Under the pieces are notes generated by a model. It saw only the letters and a program-made list of their open reading frames with translations. It was not told where the DNA came from and did not search any database. From positions 501,368 to 565,367 of the forward strand of contig CALRMK020000002.1 of the NCBI GenBank assembly GCA_943369185.1: a DNA stretch of 64,000 nucleotides, written 5' to 3'. Both the position numbers and the translations under genes were made by a program. The stretch comes from Caulobacter sp. UNC279MFTsu5.1 (lineage in GTDB: Bacteria > Bacteroidota > Bacteroidia > Chitinophagales > Chitinophagaceae). Positions 25,573 to 56,839 of the stretch are shown here, in pieces (the stretch's first letter is position 1; each line of letters opens with the position of its first letter).

Positions 25573-25700
25573 AATTAAAAATTAAAAAATTAGAAATTAA
25601 GAATTTAGAGAGAAAAATAGCTTGGTTGGTATCCCTGATTCCCATTATATTTGCAGCCCTGAAACACCAATTGTTAATTTTTAATTTCTAATTATTAATT
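25573..25700. repeat. AT-rich heptamer inverted arms flanking the tRNA promoter
   Basis: Left 25573-25608 AATTAAA AATTAAA AAATTAG AAATTAA; right 25674-25700 TTAATTT TTAATTT CTAATT ATTAATT; TATATTTG -7 box at 25646-25653 between them. Confidence 0.65.
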
Positions 25701-25711
25701 AATAATCATCT

Positions 25712-25795
25712 GCCCAGATGGCGAAATTGGTAGACGCACTGTGTTCAGGTCGCAGCGCTCGCAAGGGTGTGCTGGTTCGAATCCAGTTCTGGGCA
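25712..25795 (+). tRNA. tRNA-Leu(CAG)
   Basis: Acceptor GCCCAGA/TCTGGGC, D-loop AATTGGTAGA, anticodon loop TT-CAG-GT, long variable arm, T-loop TTCGAAT; CCA not encoded. Confidence 0.97.
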
Positions 25796-25797
25796 CT

Positions 25798-52108: not shown

Positions 52109-52238
52109 CGCCAATGAGATATTGTAAAATGGCAGGCTGTTTCTATCAGGAATGAGAAGGACAGGTAAGTGATATTCCCGAAAGTCAGAATCTCTAAAAA
52201 AAACGCCGGATTTACCTGCCAACCCTTATTTTTGCGCC

Positions 52239-52333
52239 GGCAGGTCTCACACGACCAGCTCCTGCTGAACTTCCCCAGGGCAGGAATGCAGCAAGGATAA
52301 GCGGTTGTAGCGGTGCGATGTGAGTAGCCTGCC
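52239..52333 (+). ncRNA. ffs: Small bacterial signal recognition particle RNA (4.5S)
   Basis: Helix-8 signature CAGG-GCA-GGAA-TGC-AGCA (E. coli: CAGG-TCC-GGAA-GGA-AGCA); closing stem GGCAGG..CTCAC/GTGAG..CCTGCC; TATTTTTG -7 box just upstream; T-run after. Confidence 0.88.
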
Positions 52334-52360
52334 ACTTTTTTTTCTATTCGCGGGTAGCGA

Positions 52361-54476: not shown

Positions 54477-54661
54477 ACTGCATAATTACAGTAGCTGGAT
54501 GGGGTTTTCTTATATACCGGTCTTTATAAGTTATATCCTTTACTGACCGAAACCGGATTTGTGTTTAAGTATCGGTGGAAAAATTACATAATTCACTGTA
54601 CAGCAATACTTTCTGACTGTATTTTCCCTGTTTTCTGTGTTTTAATCTTATCTTGTCATCT

Positions 54662-55663
54662 ATGCAGGAGAAAAAAGACTTTGTACATGTTACCGGTTGT
54701 GAGCCACATCGTATCCGAACCAAACTCATTCTCAAAGAAGTGCCGGAAATGCGTAACCTGATCGGTAAGAACCCTTATACTTTTCTGGCTATTGTTGGAC
54801 TGGTGGCTTTCCAATTGGTGGGAAGCTGGCTGGTGGCCGATCAATCCTGGTGGATCGTGGTAGGTGCTGCTTACCTGCTCGGTGCTTTTGCCGATCATGC
54901 TTTATTTGTGATGATCCATGAATGTGCCCACCGACTGATCTTTAAAAACCAGGCAGCCAACCGCCTGGCAGGCATTCTGGCCAATATTCCCCTGATTTTC
55001 CCCAGTTCGGTTTCTTTCGAAACCTATCATATCAAACACCATTCTTTCCAGGGCGTGCATGAACTGGATGGCGACCTGCCCAATTACTGGGAGGCAAGAC
55101 TGATCGATAACTTTTTTATTGGTAAAGTGATCTGGTTACTGTTCTATCCTTTTTTCCAGCTGTTCCGTTTTCCCCGCCTGCGCGAGATTCAGCCATTTAA
55201 CAAATGGGTGGCACTGAACTGGTTGGTACAAATTGTATTCATTAGTCTGATTGGCTGGTTGTTAGGCGCGAAAGCGGTGCTGTTTCTGATCTTTAGTTTT
55301 TTCTTTTCCGTTGGATTACATCCTTTGGGAGCGAGGTGGATACAGGAACATTATCTCACCAAAGGCGAACAGGAAACCTATAGCTATTATGGTGTGTTGA
55401 ATACGGTGGCCTTTAATGTGGGCTATCACAACGAACACCACGATTTCCCCTCCGTTCCCTGGAACCGGTTACCGCAGATCCGGAAGAATGCACCTGCTTT
55501 TTATGATACCTTGAGTTATCATACGTCCTGGACAAAACTTTTTTTCCGGTTCCTGTTCGATAAGGAGATCTCACTCTTCTCACGTATTGTAAGAACCAAC
55601 AGGGGTAAAGTGATGCTGGCCGATGAATCGCGTCCTGATATTGACCTCACAGCGGTTAAATAG
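54662..55663 (+). CDS. Fatty-acid/sphingolipid desaturase, DEGS (delta-4 desaturase/C4-hydroxylase)-like
   Basis: His boxes HECAH, HIKHH, HNEHH; N-terminal DF......PH..R...IL...PE motif; ETYSYYG.LN...[13 protein letters not shown]. Confidence 0.85.
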   Translation: [333 protein letters not shown]

Positions 55664-55727
55664 CAGTTTAGTTAACTACATTAACATACTATTTGCAGTT
55701 TAATTTTTCTGTTAAGCTATAAAGCTG

Positions 55728-55867
55728 TACATTTGCACCCTGAAACTGAGCACATATTAAAAAAGAGTCTCAAGGGTGATAGGTTCTGAGACGTTCTTCT
55801 AACGATTGAATTGGTTTTCCCCCGTTTCCGCTCAGTGTAAAAATTAATATTAAAAAGTAGAAATATT
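55728..55867 (+). promoter_or_regulatory. Strong -7 promoter and structured 5' leader of the 68-aa ORF
   Basis: TACATTTG at 55728; ACTGAGC(55745-51)/GCTCAGT(55830-36) and GTCTCA(55767-72)/TGAGAC(55787-92) nested stems. Confidence 0.55.
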
Positions 55868-56074
55868 ATGAAGAGTAATGTAATGCCTTCTATTGTCCAG
55901 ATCGAAGCAAATGAATTAAAGCAACTGGTAACAGAAGTAAAAGAAACCGTAGCAACAGGAATTGTACCTGTAACAAGAAAAAAAGCCAACCATACCCGTT
56001 TTGGTATTGTTGATCTCTGGAATATCCGTCGTGGTGTGAGAAGTACACGCGTTTCCACACGTTGGTTTGTGTAA
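55868..56074 (+). CDS. Small hypothetical protein (68 aa)
   Basis: Own promoter, AT-rich translation-initiation region, own terminator. Confidence 0.7.
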   Translation: MKSNVMPSIVQIEANELKQLVTEVKETVATGIVPVTRKKANHTRFGIVDLWNIRRGVRSTRVSTRWFV

Positions 56075-56100
56075 ACAGACCCATGCTACATGTAACTAAG

Positions 56101-56128
56101 AATCCTCCGCTTGTCGGGGGATTTTTTT
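56101..56128 (+). terminator. Intrinsic terminator
   Basis: AATCCTCCG-CTTGT-CGGGGGATT followed by a T run. Confidence 0.8.
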
Positions 56129-56154: not shown

Positions 56155-56297
56155 AAATGAAGGGCAAGCCCGAATATTGAACTCTAACATCAAGCCTGTC
56201 TGTACTTTTAATCCAGTTAAAGGTTAGAACTCGGTGGCATAGCAATCGGTGCCGGGTAAATAATCCGGAAGCCCCTGCAAAGGGGCTTCTTCATTTT
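56155..56297 (+). ncRNA. Candidate structured non-coding RNA
   Basis: End-to-end pairing AAATGAAG+AAGCCC / GGGCTT+CTTCATTT; internal stems; GCAA-capped terminator-like hairpin GAAGCCCCT-GCAA-AGGGGCTTC; no ORF. Confidence 0.45.
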
Positions 56298-56314: not shown

Positions 56315-56839
56315 CTATAGTTTTTTTTGAAGGATGACCATTCCCCGGTAAGTTTCTTTCATTTGTGTAAATGGCAGAACCAACTTGCCACAAACAGTGT
56401 AGCCCATGCGCTGGTAAAAACCGATGGCGTTCAGACTGCTGTCCATTGCCTTCAGAAAGATCCTGTTTTTGTGGTGTTGCTTTGCTACAGTCTCACTCAG
56501 TTCCATGAGCTGTTTTCCGATGCCTTTGCCGGTAGCAGCTTTGTGCAGGTAGATCCTTTCTATTTCGAGACAATCTTTGTCTTCATACCCGTTGAGAGTG
56601 CCTTTTATCCGCAGTTTGAGATATCCCTGCGCTAATTCCTCTTCATCGTAAACGATATAGTGCAGATTATTGGGATCCGCTAATTCTTCCCGTAGTGTTT
56701 CTTCCGGATAAGCCTGTTCCTCCATATACCAGTTGGCACCGCCGGGATACCACAGATGCAGGTAGTGTTCTACATAAATAGCTTTGGCCAAAGCAGAGAG
56801 CTCAGCAGCATAAGAGGAATTGATCTGTCGGATGATCAT
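56315..56839 (-). CDS. GNAT family N-acetyltransferase
   Basis: LEIERIYL, GKGIGKQLM, AIGFYQRMGY. Confidence 0.92.
   Translation of the reverse strand: MIIRQINSSYAAELSALAKAIYVEHYLHLWYPGGANWYMEEQAYPEETLREELADPNNLHYIVYDEEELAQGYLKLRIKGTLNGYEDKDCLEIERIYLHKAATGKGIGKQLMELSETVAKQHHKNRIFLKAMDSSLNAIGFYQRMGYTVCGKLVLPFTQMKETYRGMVILQKKL

Follow-up and report, generated by a model that had tools for sequence, protein, structure and literature searches.

Organization of the locus

The window, the whole 64,000-nt stretch of DNA analysed here, belongs to a Chitinophagaceae genome of 3.89 Mb in 19 contigs (the host genome), whose closest named relatives are Sediminibacterium MAGs. Read on the forward strand, the locus under study comprises a Bacteroidota promoter, followed by a leader of ~128 nt (from the predicted transcription start to the ATG), followed by an ORF for a 68-aa protein, followed by an intrinsic terminator (Table 1). 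A preliminary description had called this a self-contained unit, and the locus bears this out: each of the pieces was located, and a terminator stands right behind the ORF in 51 of 79 homologous loci as well. The unit is free-standing, since it is flanked by a desaturase gene on the same strand and by a convergent GNAT acetyltransferase gene (stop at 56315) as its downstream neighbour. The desaturase gene (54653-55663), which lies directly upstream and encodes an FA_desaturase domain and a sphingolipid Delta4-desaturase N-terminal domain, adjoins the small gene on its upstream side in 47 of 80 homologous loci.

Table 1. Features of the small-gene unit, in window positions
Feature	Positions	Strand	Remarks
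Candidate -33 region	55704-55708	+	TTTTT in the window, TTTG in relatives; ~20 nt upstream of the -7 box (TTTG/TTG expected ~19-21 nt upstream); placed by position
-7 box, TACATTTG	55728-55735	+	Fits the Bacteroidota sigma-A consensus TAnnTTTG
C-rich, then A-rich extension, CACCCTGAAAC	55736-55746	+	Common to tRNA promoters
P1, 5' strand, ACTGAGC	55745-55751	+	Covariation in relatives
Inner hairpin, AAGAGTCTCA (55763-55772) / TGAGAC(GT)TCTT (55787-55798)	55763-55798	+	Window-specific
Most conserved interior block, CTAACGATTGAATTGG	55799-55814	+	ACGA-TT core nearly invariant in all leader types
C-run, CCCCC (CUCCC in relatives)	55819-55823	+	Conserved; just before the P1 3' strand
P1, 3' strand, GCTCAGT	55830-55836	+	Covariation in relatives
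A/U-rich unpaired spacer and start context, GAAATATT	55837-55867	+	A at -3; length 21-39 nt where the stem is found
CDS, 68 aa	55868-56074	+	Model: helix at residues 7-29, short helix at 47-54 (FGIVDLWNIRR), then basic tail
Intrinsic terminator, AATCCTCCG-CTTGT-CGGGGGATT and T-run	56101-56128	+	G+C-rich hairpin 56103-56120, then TTTTTTT

The encoded protein and its paralogues

The 68-aa ORF of the preliminary description is a genuine gene under purifying selection, as judged from its homologues and from the distribution of differences over codon positions. A word-indexed search returned 343 homologues, nearly all of 61-70 aa, and an exhaustive profile search returned 631 clusters at 50% identity, most of them of 57-75 aa and a minority of up to 133 aa. 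Comparison with 17 homologues gave a clear third-position excess, with 234 substitutions at third positions versus 98 at first and 81 at second positions. The conserved residues fall in the N-terminal helix (MPSIVQIEANELKQLVTEVKETVA) and in a C-terminal FGxVDLWNIRR motif, which is followed by a basic tail. Searches with the protein against Pfam, NCBIfam, and PDB sequence profiles gave no significant match, and a search of a protein atlas gave no usable match. AlphaFold gave a low-confidence model (pLDDT 60), whose uncertainty was too great for use in a fold search. Homologues carry labels such as EF-1beta and S20 in their sources, all of them evidently spurious.

The family is narrowly distributed. 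The gene is present in 12 of 21 genomes of its own GTDB family, as against 0 of 179 genomes in 21 other families of the order; within its own family it is present in 44 of 101 sampled genera, and it is accessory because it reaches only this fraction of the genera of one family. Carriers in culture include Sediminibacterium roseum, S. goheungense, S. ginsengisoli, and Puia dinghuensis. By these comparisons, the protein family appears to be lineage-restricted, uncharacterised, and without detectable relatives of known function.

The host genome encodes two paralogues. The first, of 63 aa (contig C5, 99875-100063; locus L012, 1465-1656; also present in L014, L015, and L018), has no structured leader. 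A palindrome with 9-bp arms, GGTACTATG-TGTTG-CATAGTACC, lies just upstream of its -7 box, and a gene for a PadR-family regulator lies directly downstream, accompanied in a relative (L018) by a gene for a HAAS-domain protein. The pairing of PadR and HAAS proteins is described as an envelope-stress signalling module (PMC11237479), and the paralogue probably heads an autoregulated operon of this PadR-HAAS envelope-stress type. The second paralogue, a distant one of 72 aa, is located outside the window (contig C2, 88175-88567) and contains the sequence FSHIDLWYLQK; its sharing of the C-terminal motif suggests that F-x3-DLW-x3-(K/R) is the hallmark of the family.

A promoter of the tRNA and translation-gene class

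The -7 box of the small gene is located 111-189 nt (mostly 121-152 nt) upstream of the ATG across homologous loci. TAnnTTTG is the -7 consensus of Bacteroidota sigma-A (PMC9723704, PMC7366714), and in Flavobacterium psychrophilum the -7 box occupies positions -12 to -5 (PMC9723704), which places the predicted transcription start near 55740 (±2). The resulting leader would be far longer than the median 5' UTR of 24-32 nt in Bacteroidota (PMC9723704).

The preliminary description had noted that the promoter context is nearly identical to that of a tRNA-Leu gene in the window (25712-25796; promoter TATATTTGCAGCCCTGAAAC at 25646), and a genome-wide count upholds this. The exact form TTTGCA(N)CCCTGAAA is found at three places in the 3.89 Mb of the genome, namely before the tRNA-Leu gene, before a second tRNA cluster (contig C16), and before the small gene; since ~0.006 occurrences would be expected by chance (estimated from the 203 TAnnTTTGCA sites), the likeness exceeds chance. 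The genome has 2395 TAnnTTTG sites, and over this whole set base usage just after the box is close to unbiased. A looser form of the extension, namely TAnnTTTGCnnCC..AAA, is present at 24 sites, and NCBIfam assigns ten of the ORFs downstream of these sites to tig, typA, infA, glmM, rpsF, atpG, ndk, mnmE, rpsA, and rpmB. Thus, by the exact matches and the list of genes behind the looser form, the small gene uses a promoter class of the translation apparatus. The -7 extension TAnnTTTG-CA-n-CCC-n-AAA marks promoters of tRNA genes and of translation and housekeeping genes in the host genome; in the window, it lies at 25646-25665 for tRNA-Leu and has its small-gene counterpart at 55728-55746.

This promoter class fits strong, housekeeping-type transcription of the small gene, as the preliminary description had proposed in calling the gene strongly transcribed. 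In E. coli, discriminator-bearing promoters are subject to growth-rate and stringent control. Growth-rate control of the class described here would be an extrapolation from those promoters; the C-rich and A-rich extension of the -7 box may be the Bacteroidota counterpart of the discriminator in stringently controlled promoters.

A covarying helix closes the leader

The leader was compared over 80 loci from species-representative genomes and 80 loci from metagenomes. The closing stem proposed in the preliminary description, here termed P1, is a helix of 6-9 bp with its strands ~85 nt apart, beginning ~5 nt past the predicted transcription start. At loci where a stem search detected it, P1 starts 7-12 nt past the -7 box (19 nt in one locus) and ends 21-39 nt before the ATG. 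Its sequence changes on both sides in concert, with variants including ACCGAG/CTCGGT, ACCAAGC/GCTTGGT, ACGGAGC/GCTCCGT, TGAGCAG/CTGCTCA, CAGGGC/GCCCTG, CCGGGCAA/TTGCCCGG, GAACAACC/GGTTGTTC, and TTTTAGGGA/TCCCTAAAA. In one lineage (L040), an extra A in the 5' strand is matched by an extra U in the 3' strand; in another locus (L043), P1 contains a G.U wobble (AAUUGAGCG/CGCUCAGUU), which points to pairing at the RNA level, since the wobble is tolerable on the forward strand only.

The covariation is quantitative. On the genome loci, 93.7% of cells are paired and five of seven pairs have changed on both sides (43 cells), and on the alignment together with 63 metagenomic leaders, 92.4% of cells are paired and again five of seven pairs are double-changed (61 cells); these counts are tilted towards P1, because the alignments were built from segments chosen by the stem search and were then fitted to P1. 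None of 500 shuffles reached as high a covariation, and controls in which the 3' strand was slid along the sequence gave pairing of 11-68%. On a plain MAFFT alignment, P1 is the sole helix that RNAalifold predicts; on an 83-sequence alignment, RNAalifold predicted no consensus pairs. The central pairs (A-U, G-C, and C-G of GAGC/GCUC) are almost invariant and covary only in distant genera. Covariation of the leader stems, which the preliminary description had treated as decisive for its structured leader, is thus present at P1, and the leader is a conserved RNA element that a covarying helix closes.

The interior is variable around two constant blocks

Three types of leader can be distinguished (Sediminibacterium-like, L053-like, and Puia-like). 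Common to all three are P1, an almost invariant (U/C)AACGAUU block located 20-35 nt before the P1 3' strand, and the C-run; the variable interior inside P1 always keeps the ACGAUU block and the C-run. In Puia-like leaders, the ACGAUU block lies within a large hairpin loop closed by ACAC(U)/(A)GUGU; this hairpin is present and nearly invariant in most of 36 such leaders, with a few variants (CCU/AGG and CCA/UGG) recognised by eye. In some Sediminibacterium-like leaders only (L034, L038, L045, and L073), an optional GUGUA-N5-UACAC hairpin with conserved stem and variable loop follows just after the P1 5' strand.

The inner stem of the preliminary description (AAGAGTCTCA/TGAGAC(GT)TCTT) stands in part: it is kept in the window and its closest relatives (L022 and L023; L024-L026 with a G-C to C-G swap), but it fails as a feature of the family, with 45% of cells paired family-wide. 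The GGGTGAT within this hairpin (55774-55780) is conserved in Sediminibacterium-like leaders. Several other candidate interior helices were rejected as unconvincing, namely AACAG/CUGUU (64% of cells paired), GGRU-N6-AUCY (76-80%, mostly G.U), GAAG/CUUC (56%), and AUUC/GAAU around UAACGAUU (55%); a pairing of the GGG block with the C-run (GGG:CCC) is possible and conserved, and is without covariation. When 28 Sediminibacterium-like leaders were scanned for covariation, all positions against all, P1 alone emerged. A candidate upstream ORF was likewise discarded, the ATG of its CATGGG being AAG in the window and being absent in other groups.

Folding energy by itself fails to single out the leader: the window leader (55735-55880) has z = 0.01 versus shuffles, and the effect is modest for the stem-to-stem segment of 50 homologues (mean z -1.06; 45 negative). 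Downstream of P1 lies the A-rich start region; start contexts that are A-rich and SD-less have a role in Bacteroidota (PMC6847099).

The leader is specific to one gene family

A covariance model comprising P1 and sequence (R1) has one real match in the host genome; a second match, on contig C1 (E = 0.86), falls within coding sequence and amounts to noise. Over 101 genera of the family, R1 yielded nine matches, all of them 25-35 nt before a gene for a homologous protein, on the same strand, and on homologous loci it matched 50 of 77 and 83 of 99, solely at the leader position. A cmscan search against Rfam 15, a check named in the preliminary description (4227 models; gathering threshold and E<=10), returned only noise within 55735-55870, and the leader is in this sense uncatalogued. 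By these searches, the leader is a gene-specific element, present once per genome and tied to the 68-aa protein family, and the locus represents a new, uncatalogued orphan 5' leader RNA on an uncharacterised small-protein gene.

A proposed protein-recognised leader

The locus is best explained as a monocistronic unit whose small protein product is abundant and whose ORF has a new, gene-specific, cis-acting leader RNA in front. Judging from the comparative sequence evidence, the leader is most likely recognised by a protein in a gene-specific manner, with feedback by the gene's own product as the simplest version and with 5'-end protection as part of the effect; we put the probability of this reading at roughly 45%. 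Specifically, P1 would clamp the leader into a compact domain, and the very short free 5' end left by this domain would shield the mRNA from 5'-end-dependent decay. The domain would display the ACGAUU loop, together with GAGC/GCUC pairs that hardly vary, as a putative recognition site for protein, while the ~30-nt A/U-rich start region downstream of P1 would stay free. The simplest candidate for the binder would be the gene's own product with its Arg-rich tail, and its binding could exert feedback on translation or stability, in the manner of ribosomal-protein leaders. As expected of an autoregulatory leader, the element is found only in the mRNA of its own gene family. Against recognition by protein stand an interior that contains no convincingly covarying helix and a stability only ~1 sd above that of shuffles.

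Comparison with known systems places the leader near several classes. Autoregulatory leaders are exemplified by those of L20, S15, and S4, which are in Rfam, and by the thrS and rne 5' UTRs. Like the ribosomal-protein leaders, the leader described here is a lineage-specific, structured 5' UTR found only before a small, basic-tailed, and (as predicted) highly expressed protein, and the promoter of the small gene belongs to the class that serves rpsA, rpsF, rpmB, and infA in the host genome. Unlike the products of those genes, the 68-aa protein is no known ribosomal or RNA-binding protein; in addition, the gene is accessory (44 of 101 genera), no Rfam leader family matches, and mimicry of rRNA sequence is lacking. 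In particular, a comparison with the host rRNA operon, which addresses mimicry at the level of sequence only, gave no match for any conserved block; the longest exact match between leader and rRNA is of 12 nt and falls in the low-complexity A/T spacer, and the others, of 9 nt or less, are about what chance would give.

A second class comprises 5'-terminal stabilising stem-loops, such as those of E. coli ompA (133-nt UTR), B. subtilis aprE, and others. The leader resembles the ompA type in having a UTR of ~130 nt and a ribosome-binding region that stays open behind the paired part, and its pairing, which starts ~5 nt from the predicted 5' end, would likewise be of that type; it differs in that its 5' end forms no local hairpin and pairs with a distant segment, closing a domain of ~80 nt with conserved blocks. 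E. coli cspA, a monocistronic gene for a 70-aa protein, has a structured 5' UTR of 159 nt in which its regulation resides. The small gene shares with cspA its tiny size, a strong promoter and a terminator that serve it alone, and a structured leader of great length; it is unlike cspA in having no cold-shock domain, no similarity to the cold box, and no sign of temperature-dependent alternative folds in pairing and accessibility tests versus shuffles. With riboswitches and with orphan cis-regulatory motifs from comparative genomics (for example PMC2864571), the leader shares a covarying closing helix, a location upstream of coding genes, and the lack of annotation, but it is set apart from them by its association with a single gene, its fast-evolving interior, and the lack of a recognisable expression platform.

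The alternative ranked next, which we consider unlikely, is that the leader is a passive device for stabilisation and translation, in which nothing is sensed and in which the closing helix hides the 5' end and keeps the UTR off the A-rich start. In mRNAs such as that of ompA, a 5'-terminal stem that leaves a very short overhang gives protection from 5'-end-dependent RNases, and P1, which starts within ~5 nt of the predicted start, would have a precedent in such stems. Likewise, the start region is as open as it is behind shuffled leaders, with no alternative pairing, and the promoter, start context, and terminator suit constitutive high expression. A simple hairpin would be enough for such a role, however, and yet an interior of ~80 nt has been kept in every lineage, the ACGAUU block is almost invariant, and the C-run and the GAGC/GCUC pairs are conserved in sequence; moreover, the paralogue on contig C5 manages without a leader. 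The length of the interior weighs on both readings, as neither a bare stabiliser nor a protein-binding site would need ~80 nt.

The preliminary description had raised the possibility of a riboswitch, in which the leader would be an aptamer for a small molecule or ion controlling translation or decay of the mRNA. This now appears improbable. A closing helix such as P1 is what aptamers typically have, conservation is high at some interior nucleotides, and the optional GUGUA-N5-UACAC hairpin resembles the stems of variable length in riboswitches; but the element occurs once per genome and serves a single family of small proteins of neither metabolic nor transport type, its interior differs between genera and has no covarying junction helices (45-80% of cells paired), and no Rfam family matches. 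There is also no sign of an expression platform: no terminator lies between P1 and the ATG, the start site is not sequestered (mean accessibility z 0.21 versus shuffled leaders), and no alternative partner competes for the P1 strand (mean z -0.39, none significant). The same values dispose of several candidates of their own. A conformational switch in which the P1 5' strand would pair with a proximal copy, attractive by eye in Puia-like leaders, was significant in 0 of 91 cases at p<=0.05; occlusion or insulation of the start site by the leader is the same as with shuffled leaders; and pairing of the start region beyond that of shuffled leaders, as an RNA thermometer would have it, was not found. 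A metabolite riboswitch is thus unlikely, because the element is associated with one gene and has a fast-changing interior, and because platform, occlusion, competing pairing, upstream ORF, and rRNA mimicry are all lacking. Still less probable is a dual-function RNA, as in SgrS/SgrT and RNAIII/hld, in which the leader or the whole transcript of ~390 nt would also base-pair in trans with the ACGAUU loop as its seed. The transcript is short, strongly promoted, and terminated, with a tiny ORF, and, in Puia-like leaders at least, a loop presents a conserved single-stranded block; this block is only 6-8 nt long, however, and the ORF is under clear purifying selection and better conserved than the leader. 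The least probable reading, and in our judgement a far-fetched one, is that conservation acts on the DNA, through transcription-factor operators downstream of the promoter, the RNA helix being incidental. The sequence TTCTAACGATTGAA in the window is indeed an imperfect palindrome (10 of 14), and the promoter of the paralogue on contig C5 has a DNA palindrome that evidently controls this gene. Nevertheless, the palindrome is gone in Puia-like leaders, which read TAACGATTCTTC, P1 contains G.U pairs, and P1 strands ~85 nt apart change together in a manner that keeps their complementarity, of which an operator has no need.

If the preferred reading of a leader recognised by protein is extended to the family as a whole, the 68-aa protein could be the founding member of a small RNA-binding, possibly ribosome-associated, family of the Chitinophagaceae that is transcribed with the translation apparatus and represses itself through the ACGAUU loop and the GAGC helix, with paralogues recruited to the head of PadR-HAAS envelope-stress operons. 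We regard this joint proposal as speculative and rather unlikely in its entirety.

Bacteroidota do without Shine-Dalgarno-based initiation, and to our knowledge few gene-specific post-transcriptional controls are understood in these bacteria. The leader offers a compact test case, in culturable carriers, for control of a highly expressed small protein by a long leader in Bacteroidota, and it gives a handle on an unannotated small-protein family of ~630 sequence clusters.

Other RNA features near the unit

Beyond the terminator of the unit lies the segment 56155-56297, an ncRNA candidate flagged earlier. The hairpin at its 3' side (56267-56290) looks like a terminator on either strand; situated immediately behind the convergent GNAT gene, it may do no more than end transcription of that gene. 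A weak rimP-like Rfam match in the segment rests on the same hairpin. The segment is kept only in the closest relatives (L021-L026). Upstream of the desaturase gene, positions 52231-52338 of the window encode a Bacteroidales-type small SRP RNA (Rfam RF04183, 93.8 bits).
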